A DNA stretch of 32,333 nt from a virus. Numbering within the stretch: position 1 is the stretch's first letter; every line of letters starts with the position of its first letter. The notes beneath the pieces are model-generated. The model was not told where the DNA came from. It saw only the letters and a list, made by a program, of their open reading frames with translations, and ran no database searches. The position numbers and the translations under genes were made by a program. Shown here in pieces: positions 4,155-25,464 of the stretch. The stretch lies in UHGV virus genome UHGV-0045956; one strand, written 5' to 3'.

Positions 4155-4592
4155 TCGTGTTTCCGCTTCGCCGGAGCGCCTTTTCGCGCCATGTGATGAG
4201 TTCGGTCAGACTCATGGGATACAGTTCTGATGGCGGCCAGTGAAATATCACTGCCACATCCGCCATCAGGTCATCGACCGACAGATTTTTCGGGAACGTC
4301 ACTGCACCGAGTTCGGCGACAAAAAACCGACCACCTTACCGGCCAGCGCCACAAGGTCAGGCAGTTCCAGCGCGGCGACCTCCTGCTCGGTCAGCATCGG
4401 TGCCGTCATGCGCGGCAGCACTTTAATCAGTGCATCGACTTCGGAGTTTGCGACCGCAGCCAGACTGACACCGCGCAGCGTCCCGGCATTAGGTTTCATC
4501 AGCGTGACCTGTTCGATAACCTGTTCACCACGCTTGACCGGATTATCCAGGGTAATGACGTTTTCTGTTTCGGGAAAGCGGCTCGCAATAAC
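4147..4592 (-). CDS. E': gpE+E' programmed -1 frameshift product (partial)
   Basis: Manual translation of the -1 frame after the TTTTTTG site gives a ~58-codon extension ending at TAA 4149..4147, overlapping the T start, as for P2 E' / lambda G-T. Confidence 0.5.
4299..4592 (-). CDS. E: tail assembly chaperone gpE (5' end lost in N-gap)
   Basis: Frame is open from the gap edge (…VITLDNPVKRGEQVIEQVTL…GFLSPNSVQ*); lies between FII and T; contains the slippery heptamer. Confidence 0.6.
   Translation of the reverse strand, partial: VIASRFPETENVITLDNPVKRGEQVIEQVTLMKPNAGTLRGVSLAAVANSEVDALIKVLPRMTAPMLTEQEVAALELPDLVALAGKVVGFLSPNSVQ
4320..4326 (-). promoter_or_regulatory. -1 ribosomal frameshift slippery heptamer T_TTT_TTG
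   Basis: - strand reads GG-T TTT TTG with TTT/TTG in the E zero frame (…GFL…). Confidence 0.55.
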
Positions 4593-4699
4593 NNNNNNNN
4601 NNNNNNNNNNNNNNNNNNNNNNNNNNNNNNNNNNNNNNNNNNNNNNNNNNNNNNNNNNNNNNNNNNNNNNNNNNNNNNNNNNNNNNNNNNNNNNNNNNN
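4593..4699. other. assembly gap (107 N)
   Basis: Run of N inside the E coding region. Confidence 0.98.
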
Positions 4700-4725
4700 G
4701 GTCAGCCAGGCTGACCGGATGAAAA

Positions 4726-6447: not shown

Positions 6448-6552
6448 CCGTTTAACTCCGTGGTTAATGGGTGCAACTATTTTCTGTTGTGCAGAGCATG
6501 AGACGCTATTTGACCTGGCTGGTCAGTGGATGAAACAACAGATAAAGAAAAA

Positions 6553-6630
6553 NNNNNNNNNNNNNNNNNNNNNNNNNNNNNNNNNNNNNNNNNNNNNNNN
6601 NNNNNNNNNNNNNNNNNNNNNNNNNNNNNN
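6553..6630. other. assembly gap (78 N) followed by A22 and C17 homopolymers
   Basis: N run, then aaaaaaaaaaaaaaaaaaaaaaggggccgccccccccccccccccc at 6631..6677. Confidence 0.95.
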
Positions 6631-6752
6631 AAAAAAAAAAAAAAAAAAAAAAGGGGCCGCCCCCCCCCCCCCCCCCAGTCCTGATTTGTACACACTCATT
6701 TTCCGACTGACAATTTACATAGCCAAAACGCTATCAAATCTGACAGTCTGCT

Positions 6753-6853: not shown

Positions 6854-7960
6854 ATGGATGTCATTGAACTTAGAGAGTTACTTATCAAGTATAATGGTCT
6901 TCAAAATACTGACGAAGTCTATACGTTTTATTATGATGAAACGAATAATATTCGAAAACTATATTTAAAAGATTCTGGTTTTAATGTTGTAAAGGCGGAT
7001 AATTTCATCCTTGCAGGAATACTACACAAAGGGTTAAGCACTGACAGCGATTATTCAACCCTATTTAAAAAACTTAATCTTCAAAAAAGTGCCCGCGAGT
7101 TAAAACTCAGTCATATTGCCAAGGGTAGTTTTTTGGACATGCTTAAATCTGATAAGCTTTTAATTATTCTAAACTGGCTTATTGAAAACAATTTCCACAT
7201 CCATTATTTTAATCTTAATATCACATACTGGTCTATTATTGACATTATTGATTCTATTATTGGAGAGCTACATAATCCTTTTTATATCATGAACCACATG
7301 TCACTTAAGAGCGATTTTTATGAGCTTGCCAATAGCAATTCCGATGTTTTCCTGAATGCTCTACATAAATTTAACTACCCCGATATTCCAGAAGAAAAAG
7401 TTTATGAGTTTTGCCTCTGGCTTATCGATTTTACATGCATGCACAGTTGTATGCTACCAGATTTTCGAGCACACGCACTCAAAAATTTGGTTAAAGAATC
7501 TCTAAAAATCGAAGAACTACCGTTCATATCGGGATTTCATGGTCGAAAACTGATCGATAGCTTTATGGTATTTTATTTAAGAAACTTGTATCTATTTAAA
7601 AATTCCATTCACATATTTGATGAAGAAAATAGCATTCAAGATGAAGTTAAAAACTTCCCGTTAACTGAAAATGGCATACCAATACAGAATCATGAATTCG
7701 TTAAATCCCACAACTCAGAGGCTGTCCAACTATCTGATGTTATCGCAGGCTTTTTGGGTAAGTATTTTTCTTACTTAAAAGATGTAAATGACGAGCAATT
7801 AGCGATTGATAAGTCAGCCTTAACGAGCAAGCAATTTAAGACCCTTTCTGCGTTAAAACACATTATTGATATTTCTGATGATGTTAGCAGAGGATTTTTT
7901 AATGAAGTTAGCAGCGAGGGAGAGCGACGAAGAAACAACCGTTTTTTACATGGTGTATAA
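6854..7960 (+). CDS. hypothetical protein, AT-rich cargo gene at the Z/fun position (candidate defence/exclusion gene)
   Basis: 368-aa ORF, AGGGGA ribosome-binding site, strongly AT-rich, opposite strand to the flanking late genes; no transmembrane segment; DE near N-terminus (YYDETNN) and Q-x-x-D near C-terminus (VQLSDVIAG). Confidence 0.75.
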   Translation: MDVIELRELLIKYNGLQNTDEVYTFYYDETNNIRKLYLKDSGFNVVKADNFILAGILHKGLSTDSDYSTLFKKLNLQKSARELKLSHIAKGSFLDMLKSDKLLIILNWLIENNFHIHYFNLNITYWSIIDIIDSIIGELHNPFYIMNHMSLKSDFYELANSNSDVFLNALHKFNYPDIPEEKVYEFCLWLIDFTCMHSCMLPDFRAHALKNLVKESLKIEELPFISGFHGRKLIDSFMVFYLRNLYLFKNSIHIFDEENSIQDEVKNFPLTENGIPIQNHEFVKSHNSEAVQLSDVIAGFLGKYFSYLKDVNDEQLAIDKSALTSKQFKTLSALKHIIDISDDVSRGFFNEVSSEGERRRNNRFLHGV

Positions 7961-8059: not shown

Positions 8060-8587
8060 TTATTGCGGTATTTCCGGCCATTCAGGATTTGCAAGATCCA
8101 CACGACTGACCAGAACGCTGTAGCGTTCCCATGTTTCCAGTCGGCTGCGCTCCTCCTCTGTTGCCATATTCAGCCTGACAGCGCGCTCCAGCGGCAAAAT
8201 CACGGATTCAGCATCTGCAAGAAGTCTGGCTTTCCGAATTTCTGCCTGCTGCTGCAATTCCTCTGCCGTATAAATGCGTTTAGTCACTGTGCCGTCCTTA
8301 AACATCCAGTTCCCTGAAATGTCCGCCCGTCGGTTAGCAGTAATATCCGGCACTTCAACAACACTTAATCCATCCGGTCTGATAGCTGTCACATCCTTTT
8401 CCACATAGCGGATGATATTATCTTTGTCGTACGCTATTTTTATCGTGTCATCAGCAAAATACTTTTGTTCTTCGTACCAGTTCTTACCATCTTCTGTAAA
8501 AAACCAGACAACATCAAACTCCTTTGTCAATTGATATTGTTCAACCGTTTTTGGATTACCTGCCGTTATATTTATCAAATGCTGCAT
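8060..8587 (-). CDS. G: tail fibre assembly protein gpG
   Basis: 175 aa as in P2 G; directly downstream of H. Confidence 0.85.
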
Positions 8588-8590
8588 AAA

Positions 8591-10801
8591 TTATACCTGC
8601 GCCACGTTGTACCATGTCCCGTTAATGTATTTCTGAACCGGTCTGTAATATACGCCACCAATGTTATCGGCAGAGTTTGAGCCTGTATCCTGAACAATAA
8701 TGCCGGTATATACGCACCCGGACGGTGCCTGATGTGTCCATGTCATGCCATTGTTCGCAGGTTTGTATGTGGCCGCACCACCAAGCCGGAGATCCCTGAC
8801 ATAGCGGGAGTCAAAATTGCTGAAATTTGATGGTATCACCTGCCCGGTAACCCGTAGTGCATCAGACTTAAGCGTCATCAGATCTTTTGTTGTGCTGCCA
8901 GACCTGATGCGCCATTTAAAATATTCATTGCCATTATCACCAGTTTCAAACCACATGTATGAGTCAGAATCAGCATCTGAATCATTTTTAAATCCAATTT
9001 TCGCCCAGTCAGTGTTTCTTTCCCAAATCAGGAAGGCATCATTGATAAATTTTATGCTGCCTGACATGCTTCCGCCTGATAATGCCAGAGCAAGAATATC
9101 CGCAGGTGTTGGCTTTCGTGATGTGGTATAAAACTCTGACCAGTCAGCCTCAAATCCATACCCATCACGTGCCGACCTGTAAAAAATCCCCCTGTTTTTA
9201 TAATCCACAAGAAACTGCATTGCCGGACAACTTCCCTCACCCGTGTAAAAATGCAGCACCATTTTTGATGCTCCGCCATCCTGTGCACAATAAGCACCAC
9301 TATCCCAGTTCCATCCTACCGCTTTATTATTTGCAACCGTATTTCCTGTTTTCCCTAATGCAAAAGCCGGTTGCTTATTTTTCGTATTGTAGTCGCGTCG
9401 CCAGCCCGGCGCATAATCAGCTCCGTGATTGATATACGTGAATTGCGCACTGGTGGTACCACCACCGCTTGATGTACTCGGAGTGGTCACACGAATGGTC
9501 ATTGCAGCTTTAACGCCCATAACCTCAATCACGCAACCTGCAAGATGAATAGTCCCACAGTCAGTATCGGTAATAATTTTGTTATTACCGTATGACCAGG
9601 AACACTTGCACATCCAGTAGGGATGATTAAAGGCTCCCTGAGACTCTAGCCAGTCAATAAACTGAGCGGTTGTCCAGTTTCCGGCTTCAGTGCTCAAAGC
9701 ACCGCTATAAGCACGACAGGCACCGATATTTTTCGTGAAAGTATCCTTTCCCGGAATATCCGCACCGTTCTGATCTTTCTGAAGACGTTTTTCAGCATTG
9801 TCATAGGCAGACTTCACCGCTTTTGGTGTTGCAGCCAGCGTTTCAGAATCGCTGTTGATGGCGCTACTCAGCTGAACAAGGCCTTTTCGTACTGTGGTGG
9901 CGTCCTGTGCAGTGTATTTCCCGTTAGCAAGGTCATATGCTGCCTTTACCGCCTTTGGCGTTGCCGCAAGCGTTTCAGAATCACTGTTGGTGGCGCTACT
10001 GAGCTGAACAAGGCCTTTTCGCGTTGTGGTGGCGTCCTGTGCAGTGTATTTCCCGTTAGCAAGGTCATATGCTGCCTTTACCGCTTTCGGCGTTGCGGCG
10101 AGCGTTTCAGACGTGCTGTTGGTGGCACTACTGAGCTGGACAAGGCCTTTTCGCGCTATGGTGGCGTCCTGTGCGGTATATTTCCCGTTAGCAAGGTCAT
10201 ACGCGGCCTTTACCGCTTTCGGCGTTGCGGCCAGTGTTTCAGACGTGCTGTTGGTCGCACTGCTTAACTGAGTAAAACCTTTTGCGGTCAGCGAGGCGTC
10301 AGGGTGACGTCGTGACTGTTCATGTTCTGCAATTTTGTCATCAACGTAATCCTGCGTTGCTATCACCGTTGTGGTGTCAATGGTCAGCTCCACTGAGGCC
10401 ACACTGCTGACGATGATGACCATGCGGCAGGTCTGCGAACGCCCTGAGCCTTCGGCAAGGGCTGGCTTATAACTTTCGGCCATGTTCGCCACGGCAATTA
10501 GCGTTCCCGCATCATCGTACAGGCCAAGTTCACGCATCCAGAAACCGCCCACCTCCGGCGGAATAACCAGCTCTGCGATAATATAATTACTGTTTCGTTT
10601 GTCCTGGCTGATTTTGTTCAGCGCATGTCGCCAGACTTCGTGGATAAGCCCGGTCTGTCCGGCATCCGGGACAGGCAATTTACCACCGCCATCCCCGACG
10701 GCCATCGTGGTAATGTTGACCTTCCGCCCTCCCGGTGCGGTTGCCGCTGCCAGCTTTGCTGCACCGGCAGTGGTGATAACGGTTCTGAATTTTGTGCTCA
10801 T
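8591..10801 (-). CDS. H: tail fibre protein gpH (mosaic)
   Basis: 736 aa; N-terminus MSTKFRTVITTAGAAKLAAATAP… and C-terminus …KYINGTWYNVAQV typical of P2 H; internal 44-aa repeats; divergent Cys-containing middle section. Confidence 0.9.
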   Translation of the reverse strand: MSTKFRTVITTAGAAKLAAATAPGGRKVNITTMAVGDGGGKLPVPDAGQTGLIHEVWRHALNKISQDKRNSNYIIAELVIPPEVGGFWMRELGLYDDAGTLIAVANMAESYKPALAEGSGRSQTCRMVIIVSSVASVELTIDTTTVIATQDYVDDKIAEHEQSRRHPDASLTAKGFTQLSSATNSTSETLAATPKAVKAAYDLANGKYTAQDATIARKGLVQLSSATNSTSETLAATPKAVKAAYDLANGKYTAQDATTTRKGLVQLSSATNSDSETLAATPKAVKAAYDLANGKYTAQDATTVRKGLVQLSSAINSDSETLAATPKAVKSAYDNAEKRLQKDQNGADIPGKDTFTKNIGACRAYSGALSTEAGNWTTAQFIDWLESQGAFNHPYWMCKCSWSYGNNKIITDTDCGTIHLAGCVIEVMGVKAAMTIRVTTPSTSSGGGTTSAQFTYINHGADYAPGWRRDYNTKNKQPAFALGKTGNTVANNKAVGWNWDSGAYCAQDGGASKMVLHFYTGEGSCPAMQFLVDYKNRGIFYRSARDGYGFEADWSEFYTTSRKPTPADILALALSGGSMSGSIKFINDAFLIWERNTDWAKIGFKNDSDADSDSYMWFETGDNGNEYFKWRIRSGSTTKDLMTLKSDALRVTGQVIPSNFSNFDSRYVRDLRLGGAATYKPANNGMTWTHQAPSGCVYTGIIVQDTGSNSADNIGGVYYRPVQKYINGTWYNVAQV
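9795..10290. repeat. in-frame tandem repeats, 132-bp period, ~3.5 copies, inside H
   Basis: gtggtggcgtcctgtg… recurs at 9893, 10025 and 10157; encodes repeated LSSATNSTSETLAATPKAVKAAYDLANGKYTAQDAT. Confidence 0.85.
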
Positions 10802-10811
10802 TATTCCTCAC

Positions 10812-11342
10812 TTATCCGGGGTAAACCGTAATTACATCGCCGTCGTAAGCCACACCACCGGCGAACAGGTAGCCGGGAATATCCCGGGTAATGTTCAGGC
10901 CAATAAGATGACGGCTTGCAGGTTTGGCATCAGCAATAAGCCGTTCCATTTCCTGATACATTGCCTCTGTGATGCCGCTTTCCAGTACGCCAATATCAAG
11001 CCGGAAGGTGCCTGGCGGGTCACTGGTTTCCCACCACTCCGTCACGTTGATGAGATAGCCCAGCGGCTCCACCACACGCCGGATTGCACCTATAGTGCCT
11101 TTATGACAGTGGATGAAATAGGCATCGCGAATAACGGCGCGTTTTGTCGCTTCCGGCCACTTTTCATCCCACCTGTCGACCGAAAACGCCCACGCCAGCC
11201 ACGGCAGTAGATTTGCCGGACAGGTGTCCGGGTTCCACAGCTCACGAATACTGACCGGCGTTTTTTCAATTTCCGCACAGGCTTTTGCGGCGGCGACTTC
11301 AAGCGGTGATGAGCCGGTCGGCAGCAGGCGCGAATCACTCAT
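10812..11342 (-). CDS. I: baseplate assembly protein gpI
   Basis: 176 aa as in P2 I; overlaps J stop. Confidence 0.85.
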   Translation of the reverse strand: MSDSRLLPTGSSPLEVAAAKACAEIEKTPVSIRELWNPDTCPANLLPWLAWAFSVDRWDEKWPEATKRAVIRDAYFIHCHKGTIGAIRRVVEPLGYLINVTEWWETSDPPGTFRLDIGVLESGITEAMYQEMERLIADAKPASRHLIGLNITRDIPGYLFAGGVAYDGDVITVYPG

Positions 11343-22666: not shown

Positions 22667-23668
22667 TTATAATAATTTGTCCAGCCTAGCTGAAACAATA
22701 CCTAGAACAACTGTTGAAACTATATTTATCACCACTCTTAAAATACTCTTCTTTCGCTTCTTACTATATTCATCATACAACCTCTCATCACCCTTATTTA
22801 ATACAATGTACGATGCTGGAGTATAACCATCAATTAATCTCTCTAGGCCTTCACCTAAATGCTCCGCTAACAATGGGATAATAGAAAACGCACCAAGAAA
22901 GAGCATTAAAAATTTTACTAACCTTTCTTTATCACCAATATCAATATATTCACCAACATTGTACAGTGCATAACTTAAAATCAATATAGAAAAAGAAAAC
23001 CGCATAATCAGTGGAATTAAATACGATATCCTTTGAGCTTGCTGTATCAATGGTATTTTGTTTGTAACTCTTTGACATCCTTCAACCCATTCTTTAAATG
23101 CTTCGATAAAACCTCTAGCCACTACATAATCAGCATATTCAACAACTATTTCTGCTGAACTGGTGAGCATGAATGCAACAAAACGCCCCCTAATGAAAGG
23201 TGGTGCATCTTCTTCCATTTCTTTCTGCATAGCAATTCTTGATGCTAATTTAACAGTAACTTCATAGTGGTTAGGTAATGATGCCCCTGTCGATAAAATT
23301 GCAAAGTTATATTTTAAAATTACACTAATTGTTGGACTACTTCCCGCACTACTCGACATTGCAAACTTATCAAAAGAGGTAAACTGTTCCTTTCTATCTT
23401 TTGAATGTAAAATAGTTACCGTTTCATTTTTCGATATAATATTATGAACATCACACAATTGATTTATTTTTTGATGAACGCTTCTTATCTCATCGATATT
23501 TATAAGTAAATTCTCAGAGGTTCTCTGCCTTATTGTTTCTGTTGTTCCCGTTATATGTTGATAAATTTGCTGATAAATACGAATGCTAGTATTAATATCC
23601 CGAGAAGCAGGTAACCCACTATTAACCCCATTATTTTTTTCATTTGACTCATCAATTATAATACTCAT
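22667..23668 (-). CDS. hypothetical membrane protein, AT-rich cargo between cos and Q
   Basis: 333-aa ORF; ~200-aa soluble N-terminal part then three predicted transmembrane helices; strongly AT-rich versus backbone. Confidence 0.7.
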   Translation of the reverse strand: MSIIIDESNEKNNGVNSGLPASRDINTSIRIYQQIYQHITGTTETIRQRTSENLLINIDEIRSVHQKINQLCDVHNIISKNETVTILHSKDRKEQFTSFDKFAMSSSAGSSPTISVILKYNFAILSTGASLPNHYEVTVKLASRIAMQKEMEEDAPPFIRGRFVAFMLTSSAEIVVEYADYVVARGFIEAFKEWVEGCQRVTNKIPLIQQAQRISYLIPLIMRFSFSILILSYALYNVGEYIDIGDKERLVKFLMLFLGAFSIIPLLAEHLGEGLERLIDGYTPASYIVLNKGDERLYDEYSKKRKKSILRVVINIVSTVVLGIVSARLDKLL

Positions 23669-24036: not shown

Positions 24037-24954
24037 TCATTCACAATCATGCATATTAAAGAACGGGTATGGATAGCGTCGTAAGATCTCATCTTCACTG
24101 TACCCCAAATAATCAGACATGAGTTTAATCGAAGGTGGCGTTACAGGTTTCATAAGCAGAGGAAAACGTTCGTGCAAATCATTGAATTTAAGAATCCCTG
24201 AATCTTCTTGCATTACTCTTTTGTCAAACAGCGATTCAGCATACAATGGCAACTCTTTGAGCAACAGATTAATATCAAGCAACAAAACATCTATCATAAT
24301 CATTATTTGCTCAGTAATATCAATGTAATAAGCCGCCTTATTACTACCTATAGCATTAACAATATCATCATTTTTAAAACGCATCGTCGGCAAAGGTGAA
24401 CCTGTTGATTCAATAATCATTCCTCTATAGGTGTCATCAAAATCATTCCTAACATTTAATGCAGCCAATAGGCTGTTAAACCTTCTTGCTATATCACTAA
24501 CAACAAAAGCATCCCCCCAGTTAGTAGTCTTTGCTGTCTCTCTATTATTCTCTACTCCCTTTTGACTCAATATACAGGCCAACTCACTTAAATCTGATGA
24601 TAGGGGAGCACCAGAAAAAACCACGACAGGAAAAGCTAAAGCCCTCTCGATAGGATTTTCACTTATACTTACCCCACCATAATAATTCCCTTTAATTTGC
24701 AACAACGTTGTCATTGCAGAAAAGTAGTCATAAATACATTTATTTACAACGCTTACCTTTCTTCTTTGTGCTTTAAGGTACTCCTGCCGATAAAACAACC
24801 TAGTTGCAATAAAGTAACTCAGCACAGAAGAGATAATTGGTAATACTACAGGCAGCACATAATCTTTTATGACATTAGTATTATTAACGCCTTTAATTGC
24901 ATCAATAATATCCTCAACCTGAAGCTGCCCTATTATATAGCTCGTATAATCCAT
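24037..24954 (-). CDS. hypothetical membrane-anchored protein, AT-rich cargo at the tin/old position
   Basis: 305-aa ORF; single N-terminal transmembrane helix (YVLPVVLPIISSVLSYFIATRLF); ATG 2 nt after the upstream lipoprotein stop. Confidence 0.7.
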   Translation of the reverse strand: MDYTSYIIGQLQVEDIIDAIKGVNNTNVIKDYVLPVVLPIISSVLSYFIATRLFYRQEYLKAQRRKVSVVNKCIYDYFSAMTTLLQIKGNYYGGVSISENPIERALAFPVVVFSGAPLSSDLSELACILSQKGVENNRETAKTTNWGDAFVVSDIARRFNSLLAALNVRNDFDDTYRGMIIESTGSPLPTMRFKNDDIVNAIGSNKAAYYIDITEQIMIMIDVLLLDINLLLKELPLYAESLFDKRVMQEDSGILKFNDLHERFPLLMKPVTPPSIKLMSDYLGYSEDEILRRYPYPFFNMHDCE

Positions 24955-25163: not shown

Positions 25164-25301
25164 TTTAAACACCTTAACAAACACGATACAAAAACGTATA
25201 TTTATATTATCTTTCAGAATAAGTAAATCCCAGCTATTCATCAACTCTCGGTGTCAATCTGATGGGTATCTAACGCCTCGCTAAGCTCGTTGTTCAACCC
25301 C

Positions 25302-25428
25302 NNNNNNNNNNNNNNNNNNNNNNNNNNNNNNNNNNNNNNNNNNNNNNNNNNNNNNNNNNNNNNNNNNNNNNNNNNNNNNNNNNNNNNNNNNNNNNNNNNN
25401 NNNNNNNNNNNNNNNNNNNNNNNNNNNN
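25302..25428. other. assembly gap (127 N) followed by ~31-nt poly-G
   Basis: N run, then gggggggggtgggggggggggggggggggggg at 25429..25460. Confidence 0.95.
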
Positions 25429-25464
25429 GGGGGGGGGTGGGGGGGGGGGGGGGGGGGGGGTTTA

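Follow-up and report, generated by a model that had tools for sequence, protein, structure and literature searches.

A P2-type tail fibre gene with a repeat array of variable length and a Mu/P1 S'-type module as its predicted host-recognition part

How much of the tail fibre gene H of this P2-like prophage is P2's own, and which of its parts would decide which hosts are recognized? In the window, that is, the whole 32,333-nt stretch of virus genome UHGV-0045956 analysed here, H occupies positions 8591..10801 on the minus strand. The ORF list gives an intact frame of 736 aa with an ATG start and a stop codon at 8591-8593, and the coordinates assigned to the gene in an earlier sequence-only reading were exact. 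Directly upstream, on the same strand, lies the baseplate wedge gene I (10812..11342; Pfam Tail_P2_I, E 6e-56), which is also supported by the annotation of a 99.97-100% identical prophage and by the P2 map. Since gene I is immediately upstream of H, the P2 gene order V-W-J-I-H-G applies here, and with the tail-fibre assembly chaperone (Tfa) gene G downstream (Caudo_TAP), H is found in the P2-type operon position.

The gene is already present in public databases. Its product is 100% identical to WP_000104726.1, annotated as 'tail fiber protein' in an E. coli MS 16-3 prophage, and 98.9% identical (8 residues differ) to the 736-aa H of P2DC1 (OU784750.1). The gpH of phage fiAA91-ss (AGX84580.1, 692 aa) is the same allele minus one interior repeat unit, with three units versus the four found here. 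Outside the repeats, the fiAA91-ss and P2DC1 proteins are 99% identical to H, and the S' module, the mid domain, the tip, gene G and a DUF3800 neighbour are all as in the window. Besides 30 complete genomes of E. coli, the allele is represented by at least 120 distinct protein sequences. The feature is not new, but an ordinary, known kind of mosaic. As far as homology can tell, it is largely right to describe H as the tail fibre of a P2-like (Peduovirus) prophage whose host-recognition half has been replaced by a Mu/P1-type module.

The N-terminal baseplate-attachment domain (aa 1-167; 10301..10801, minus strand) is near-identical to that of P2 H and matches Pfam PF12571 (Phage_tail_fib, a tail-collar fibre domain) with E 3.2e-58, residues 1-151 aligning to profile positions 1-150. 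It falls in the only closely P2-like part of the gene, nt 1-726, which is 96% identical to P2 H. Beyond nt 726 there are only matches of 73-82%, to P2 or Mu segments, and the GC content changes from 0.55 at the N-terminus to 0.41-0.50 in the distal modules. The break in close P2 homology, at gene nt ~726, lies within the repeat array.

P2 gpH (AAD03286.1, 669 aa; chaperone gpG) has the same locus and gene order as H, and the two proteins align over aa 1-288, 571-651 and 651-736 of H alone. P2 H is without the S' module, its segments at aa ~287-390 and ~472-591 (the latter ~120 aa) are missing from H, and its PF03406 repeat is present, but in two units versus four. The domain at P2 residues 391-471 and the last 17 residues are common to both proteins. 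The sequence-only reading had named full-length collinear identity with P2 H as the finding that would speak against a mosaic; the central region is non-collinear. Of the 'P2-like N- and C-termini' that it had described, the N-terminus stood (nt 1-726, 96%), whereas the C-terminus turned out to be only loosely P2-like (69%, then 45%).

The anchor domain is followed by four tandem units of 44 aa or 132 bp (aa 168-343; 9773..10300, minus strand), detected with Pfam PF03406 (Phage_fiber_2) and TRF. Unit 1 is at 10169-10300, unit 2 at 10037-10168, unit 3 at 9905-10036 and unit 4 at 9773-9904. The 42-position profile of PF03406 ('Phage tail fibre repeat') matched four stretches (E 1.9e-81, 267.9 bits versus a cut-off of 22), TRF reported a single array at 9800-10255 (period 132, 3.5 copies, 90% matches, no indels, score 688), and a repeat search found the 132-nt spacing across 9794-10300. 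The array is far beyond chance. The ~3.5 in-frame 132-bp repeats noticed from the letters agree with the TRF figure and are four 44-aa units at the protein level; TRF counts 3.5 copies because the last third of unit 4 diverges. DNA identity is 83% between units 1 and 2, 91% between units 2 and 3, which have an exact 48-nt run in common, and 74% between units 3 and 4.

The array had also been proposed as a substrate for copy-number change, and natural alleles bear this out: versions with three, four and five units were found with the remaining 560 residues identical, and P2 has two units. Among the 120 closest distinct proteins, 45 have 692 aa (three units), 71 have 736 aa (four) and 4 have 780 aa (five), the lengths always differing by exactly 44 aa. 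The gene is 2211 bp long in 25 of the 30 complete E. coli genomes with the allele and 2079 bp long in the other 5. We estimate ~25 independent copy-number changes, a rough figure read from a poorly resolved UPGMA tree of near-identical proteins. The array does not behave as a phase-variable contingency locus: 132 bp equal 44 codons, and all natural variants are in frame.

The middle of the protein (aa 344-570; 9092..9772, minus strand) was identified as a Mu/P1 S'-type module by PDB sequence search, BLASTP, tblastn and an AF2 model compared with Foldseek. In the PDB sequence search, aa 334-571 of H matched residues 177-416 of Mu S' (8ju3) with E 4e-118. By tblastn the module is 80% identical to P1 Sv', 76% to D108 S' and 75% to Mu S', further phages matching just one half of it, and BLASTP against a reconstructed Mu S' placed the junction at an NGADIP motif common to both proteins. 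The AF2 model reached pLDDT values of 80-94 for the module and matched 8ju3 in Foldseek (E 6e-35), the sole convincing PDB match; those to the phi812 baseplate, the R2 pyocin fibre and GH43/sialidase folds had TM values of 0.1-0.2 and were uninformative. Mori and colleagues are said to have described the 8JU3 structure in 2024. Two sub-modules make up the region, aa 344-478 with a cysteine cluster and aa 479-570 (Pfam gp37_C). The 'swapped receptor-binding region' suspected here is thus, by homology, the variable module of Mu/P1 S', placed where P2 H is not collinear. A protein database search with the S' module alone returned only proteins of up to ~400 aa, apparently a length effect, and the fibre architectures come from a further search that used full-length H as query.

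Four clustered cysteines had likewise been noticed in the middle segment; they are C398, C400, C415 and C423 (with H419; aa 398-423, 9533..9610, minus strand), the cysteines of the entire protein being residues 125, 362, 398, 400, 415, 423, 505, 525 and 696. With disulfides or a metal site as possible roles of the cluster, the co-occurrence of its residues was examined. C398 and C415 are nearly invariant in the 116 homologues in which all five cluster positions were aligned. C400 and C423 co-occur: 31 of the 116 have both, 2 have C423 only and the rest neither. Mu has G and A at positions 400 and 423, and a C at 419.

Mu S' (gp52; PDB 8JU3) and P1 Sv' have not only the variable module in common with H but also the repeat before it and the NGADIP motif at the junction. 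Their module, however, lies in a Gin/Cin-invertible segment and is directly followed by the tip, with U' as the chaperone, whereas H has an extra 80-aa S/P2-type domain between module and tip and a G/U-type chaperone. Nor is the module of H within a gix/cix-bounded invertible segment. No match to Mu gix with up to 3 mismatches was found on either strand of the whole window, and the only inverted repeats around H are 20-23 nt long with 78-80% complementarity, which is chance-like. We therefore rejected the idea that such a segment has left a remnant here. The annotation of the 99.97-100% identical prophage lists no invertase, and it suggests no reverse transcriptase of a diversity-generating retroelement.

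The domain after the S' module (aa 571-651; 8849..9091, minus strand) has 69% identity with residues 391-471 of P2 H and 68% with residues 184-267 of Mu S, where it matches 5yvq residues 184-267 with E 5.9e-31 in the PDB sequence search. It carries the motif NTDWAKIGF...YMWFETGDNGNEYFKWR and has a weak match to Pfam Gp34_trimer under the cut-off of that family; Mu S' and most Sv'-type cassettes lack it. In the AF2 monomer model it is poorly predicted (pLDDT 44-60), as an interdigitated trimer would lead one to expect. The distal tip (aa 652-736; 8594..8848, minus strand), the predicted docking site of the chaperone, matches Mu S 425-503 (5yvq, E 6.3e-15) and residues 482-552 of the phiTE short tail fibre (9cuy, E 4e-19). 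Over the last 86 aa, identity with the P2 H tip is only 45%, the final 17 residues being almost unchanged. The tip is also 88% identical to that of one cassette (P0011), in which the S' module directly precedes it. Mu S (gp49; PDB 5YVQ), which works with TfaMu (U), is homologous to H in the mid domain and the tip, but its region 268-424 has no equivalent in H.

Gene G (8060..8587, minus strand; 175 aa; Pfam Caudo_TAP, E 1.3e-32) encodes the Tfa chaperone. It is 93% identical to fiAA91-ss G, 73% to P2 G, 72% to Mu U and 55% to Mu U', and its C-terminal half belongs with the G/U-type chaperones and not with U'; the differences from P2 G are mostly in the fibre-binding N-terminal half. According to PMC9608196, which cites North et al. 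2019, TfaMu attaches to the distal fibre with its N-terminal domain and trimerises through its C-terminal helices. By analogy, G would dock on the tip and drive trimerisation starting at the C-terminal end of the fibre, and it would probably remain attached afterwards.

We consider it likely that H is a trimeric fibre of five interchangeable modules in which the third carries an S'-like receptor specificity. Module (i), aa 1-167, would be the baseplate anchor and is essentially P2's own sequence; the 44-residue repeats of module (ii), aa 168-343, would build the proximal shaft; module (iii), aa 344-570, is the S' variable module; module (iv), aa 571-651, the domain common to P2 H and Mu S; and module (v), aa 652-736, a small tip. 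Since Mu S also has the conserved repeat, the repeat is a likely homology track along which distal halves are exchanged, and it is inside the array that the P2 homology breaks off. The 132-bp units, of which 2 and 3 have the 48-nt exact run in common, resemble each other enough to allow unequal recombination or replication slippage, so the unit number drifts from two to five, each step in frame, which alters the length of the fibre and not its expression.

By homology, the S' module would bind LPS core sugars; the two fibres of Mu bind different regions of the LPS core (PMC11821841). The specificity of H would then most likely be S'-like, that is, directed to LPS cores of the E. coli C, Shigella, Citrobacter and Enterobacter type, and not P2's, and we infer a host range unlike that of P2. 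The receptor-binding module, the receptor and any functional effect of the unit number are likewise inferred, whereas the modules with their homologies, the breakpoint and the natural variation in unit number are observed. An engineered fibre (Fa-arun et al. 2023, PMC9942202) joins a P2 N-terminal part to an S'-type distal part, the design that recombination has produced in H: together with U', P2(1-370)-P1 S'(446-987) increased the transduction of a P4 cosmid into S. flexneri M90T ~4-5-fold, and particles with the P2-P1 S' chimeric fibre infect S. flexneri only. That construct has the whole P1 S' distal half and U', fused at P2 residue 370, whereas natural H switches inside the repeat array and has a G/U-type tip and chaperone. 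Because of the extra domain before the tip and the G/U-type chaperone, the geometry of the S' module, and possibly its role, may differ here. SfMu, whose S' is >95% identical to that of Mu, relies on O-antigen and has hosts outside the range of Mu G(-) (PMC4406740), so that receptor identity is not safely transferable at 75-80%.

Since the tip and G also differ from those of P2, the middle module is not the sole candidate for the specificity determinant. It is possible, though we think it rather unlikely, that the tip (aa 652-736) and G jointly determine specificity, the S' module serving as a structural knob or as a secondary site of reversible binding. Exchange of a 31-aa stretch (HR2) close to the C-terminus suffices to change the host range of the P2-like phage P88 (PMC5285337), which points to the tip and not to a mid-fibre domain; the tip of H is only 45% identical to P2's, G differs from P2 G mainly in its N-terminal half, and tips of this type are found in further fibres, for instance the phiTE short tail fibre. 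Tfa proteins, which stay bound to the fibre, also play a part in recognizing the host (PMC9608196; PMC11915804, after North and Davidson 2021). However, what sets Mu/P1 S' apart from S is the S' module, a large variable block; the tip is short with its last 17 residues nearly invariant; and P2 particles are retargeted when the distal half of P1 S' is transferred to them by engineering (PMC9942202), though the S' tip and U' were part of that construct as well. Far less credible is a dead fusion left by a Gin/Cin-type invertible tail-fibre segment in a defective prophage, which we regard as highly improbable. The S' module does usually occur in invertible cassettes of ~305-330 aa, and P2 H has a relic of the crossover-site peptide, LGLQETVN; but the H reading frame is intact, the viable phage fiAA91-ss uses the allele, and its conservation across the 30 complete genomes and at least 120 distinct proteins also argues against a dead gene.

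We favour the five-module fibre with S'-like specificity. The differences in unit number could plausibly, if not probably, be a neutral length polymorphism that has no effect on infection or, at the extreme, assembly artefacts. Every unit number from two to five is seen in apparently intact fibres; short-read assemblers can collapse tandem 132-bp repeats, and draft assemblies are the source of many of the protein records. The artefact version fails on the presence of both the 2211-bp and the 2079-bp gene in 'complete'-level genomes and finished phage records. At the other end stands a bivalent fibre, in which the mid-fibre S' knob and the tip with G would bind two epitopes (the knob, LPS core), while the fast-changing number of shaft units (three to five on identical backbones) would tune reach through O-antigen or capsule of varying thickness, making it an adaptive, quickly reversible host-range dial and not a neutral trait; we hold this to be improbable.

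The practical value of H is small, and the gene is a textbook case of modular tail-fibre evolution, reportedly a theme for the P2, Mu and P1 fibres since the early 1990s (in work by Haggard-Ljungquist and colleagues in 1992 and by Sandmeier in 1994). Nature had already made the P2::S' chimera that synthetic biologists built for P2/P4 delivery to Shigella. The natural junction within a conserved repeat, combined with a P2-type chaperone, suggests that engineers could use this fusion point as it stands and H-G as a compact cassette, and the alleles with three, four and five units on identical backbones are a natural series for relating fibre length to adsorption. fiAA91-ss is an infectious phage that uses this H allele with three units; our literature search found no description of its fibre or host range. 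The '-ss' in its name, which is said to go back to Allue-Guardia and co-workers in 2013, is taken to mean propagation in Shigella sonnei. One protein near-identical to H (P0212) is from Shigella sonnei.

Gene H, encoding the tail fibre, is a single ORF of 736 aa on the minus strand (8591..10801, coordinates exact according to the ORF list). Pfam analysis identified a Tail_P2_I gene on one side (10812..11342, minus) and the Caudo_TAP chaperone gene G on the other (8060..8587, minus), and comparison with the P2 map placed the gene in the H slot of the operon V-W-J-I-H-G. The entire window is a P2-like prophage: a prophage of E. coli MS 16-3, located beside pflB/focA, is 99.97-100% identical to it. 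Three stretches (4566-4700, 6551-6671 and 25301-25457) lay outside this megablast alignment, which could reflect small indels or low-complexity masking. The nearest phage record to the first 25 kb is fiAA91-ss (96.9% identity over 89%). RefSeq already contains a protein identical to H, named 'tail fiber protein', and a version with three repeat units is the gpH of the published phage fiAA91-ss.

In DNA sequence, H is 96% identical to P2 over nt 1-726, while the remainder yielded only 73-82% matches to scattered P2 or Mu segments. Since homology to P2 breaks after nt 726, we place a recent recombination joint inside the repeat array. The GC content decreases from 0.55 at the N-terminus of H to 0.47, 0.41 and 0.50 across the distal modules and 0.45 in G; that of the window is 0.51.

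The array was recovered as proposed by the sequence-only reading. TRF detected a single array at 9800-10255 (period 132, 3.5 copies, 90% matches, 0 indels), and the protein comprises four 44-aa units (aa 168-343, window 9773-10300, minus strand), each matching the Pfam family PF03406 'Phage tail fibre repeat'. Of these, units 2 and 3 resemble each other most (120/132 nt identical), units 1 and 2 share 83% identity, and the last third of unit 4 is divergent. In E. coli, about 25 nt are usually quoted as the minimum for RecA-dependent exchange, which the 48 nt exact run between units 2 and 3 exceeds.

The suggestion that such repeats are a substrate for copy-number change was borne out. Two units are present in P2 H, three in fiAA91-ss, and four in both 'P2DC1' H (OU784750.1) and the window. 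The 120 best distinct proteins from a collection of 5.8 billion comprised 45 with three units (692 aa), 71 with four (736 aa) and 4 with five (780 aa). An identical set of 560 non-repeat residues occurs with three, four or five units, so that unit number changes faster than point substitutions build up; about 25 such changes were counted on a UPGMA tree, a figure that is indicative only. Misassembly of repeats could mimic this pattern, but complete genomes contain both lengths (2211 bp in 25 and 2079 bp in 5, 5,426 genomes searched), and we therefore rejected an assembly artefact. A role as phase-variation switch was likewise rejected: because one unit equals 44 codons, gain or loss alters the length of the fibre and not the reading frame.

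The middle of H had been suspected to be a swapped receptor-binding region, and it is a Mu/P1 S'-type module (aa 344-570, 75-80% identity). In a PDB sequence search, H 334-571 matched residues 177-416 of 8ju3 ('Tail fiber protein S / S'' of phage Mu, E 4e-118), an entry that PMC11821841, citing Mori et al. 2024, assigns to the Mu G(-) fibre gp52. A 488-aa Mu S' sequence, pieced together from the constant part and the inverted variable part in the Mu genome, was aligned to H. After its last repeat, H joins the S' variable part at a common 'NGADIP' motif, skipping the 32 Mu S' residues that hold the G-segment crossover site. Neither a gix site nor a meaningful inverted repeat was found, and the module is fixed in H and non-invertible. 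By tblastn it is 80% identical to P1 Sv', 76% to D108 S' and 75% to Mu S', and matches spanning at least 80% of its length occur in 36 phage records. An AlphaFold2 model built with 92 homologues gave pLDDT values of 80-94 for the module, and 8ju3 was the sole convincing Foldseek match (E 6e-35).

The module is itself a composite, its two halves having been shuffled separately. In several Peduovirus H proteins (11W, 10W, OU784746) the match is restricted to H 479-571 (Pfam gp37_C, ~77% identity), the similarity of the lambdoid mEp460 fibre is confined to the first 140 residues (81%), and KVP40-type long tail fibres of Vibrio phages match part of the N-terminal half (~47%). The four clustered cysteines noticed in the middle segment are C398, C400, C415 and C423 (window 9533-9610, minus strand). 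C398 and C415 are almost invariant among the homologues (P0001-P0120); C400 and C423 occur together in 31, singly in 2 and not at all in ~80, including Mu, and residue 419 alternates between C, H and Q. Such a distribution is compatible with one conserved pair and another confined to a subfamily, and suggests that C400/C423 may form a second disulfide or a metal site.

Towards the C-terminus, aa 571-651 (NTDWAKIGF...YFKWR) share 69% identity with P2 H 391-471 and 68% with Mu S 184-267, a region solved in 5YVQ. For the short tip (aa 652-736), homologous sequence is present in Mu S (425-503) and in the phiTE short tail fibre (9CUY), where it likewise forms the tip. Domain-wise comparison with P2 H revealed no full collinearity, P2 residues ~472-591 having no counterpart. 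Of the P2-like termini expected from the sequence-only reading, the N-terminus holds; the C-terminus is P2-like only loosely, its tip being 45% identical, yet with nearly the same last 17 residues. Most S'-type database cassettes (~305-330 aa, including 'bv'' proteins) pass from the S' module directly to a ~66-aa tip; the three-part arrangement of H is also present in the homologues P0003, P0059 and P0088, and cassette P0011 fuses an S' module to a tip 88% identical to that of H. G shares 73% identity with P2 G, 72% with Mu U and 55% with Mu U', and belongs to the G/U type in its C-terminal half.

We consider it probable that H is a mosaic fibre that combines a recognition module of the S' type with a shaft of variable length. 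The N-terminus would dock to the baseplate, the repeats would form a shaft of adjustable length, and LPS would be bound by the S'-type module, the tip, or both. G would dock on the tip and nucleate trimerisation in the manner of the Mu chaperone TfaMu (PMC9608196). The two Mu fibres recognise different LPS-core regions (PMC11821841), and a laboratory fibre, P2(1-370)-P1 S'(446-987), redirects P2/P4 particles to S. flexneri (PMC9942202). In H, recombination has arrived at the same idea in nature; one protein near-identical to H stems from S. sonnei. However, host range in the P2-like phage P88 was changed by a stretch of 31 aa close to the C-terminus (PMC5285337), and SfMu S', >95% identical to that of Mu, serves a phage that uses O-antigen and infects hosts other than those of Mu G(-) (PMC4406740). 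Both cases count against a simple transfer of receptor to H, and we lean only slightly towards the S' module as main determinant.

H is a real feature, correctly read from the sequence, but ordinary and already known in kind and sequence. For each of its modules there is a named Pfam family or a solved homologue, and the fibres of P2, Mu and P1 have long been known to exchange parts horizontally, as reportedly described by Haggard-Ljungquist et al. in 1992. Our literature search found no explicit statement that this H allele carries an S' module or has a polymorphic repeat number; these two observations are incremental.

Elsewhere in the window, another variable cargo region of P2-like phages, which separates the portal gene from the replication region, contains two minus-strand ORFs of 333 aa (22667-23668) and 305 aa (24037-24954). 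Both are 'hypothetical protein' in the E. coli MS 16-3 annotation. PADLOC searches with the two returned 0 matches; Pfam gave no match for the 305-aa ORF and only a weak DUF3894 match, below its cut-off, for the other (E 0.0021). A 368-aa DUF3800 protein (6854-7960, plus strand; Pfam E 1.2e-6) is encoded in the gap separating G from the sheath gene FI, the place of the non-essential moron fun(Z) in P2; the same gene is listed as orf20 in fiAA91-ss and as WP_000382497.1 in E. coli MS 16-3. The protein has a full-length match to PDC-S51, a candidate defence family of PADLOC (E 8.9e-106), and is possibly anti-phage cargo in a known P2 hotspot.
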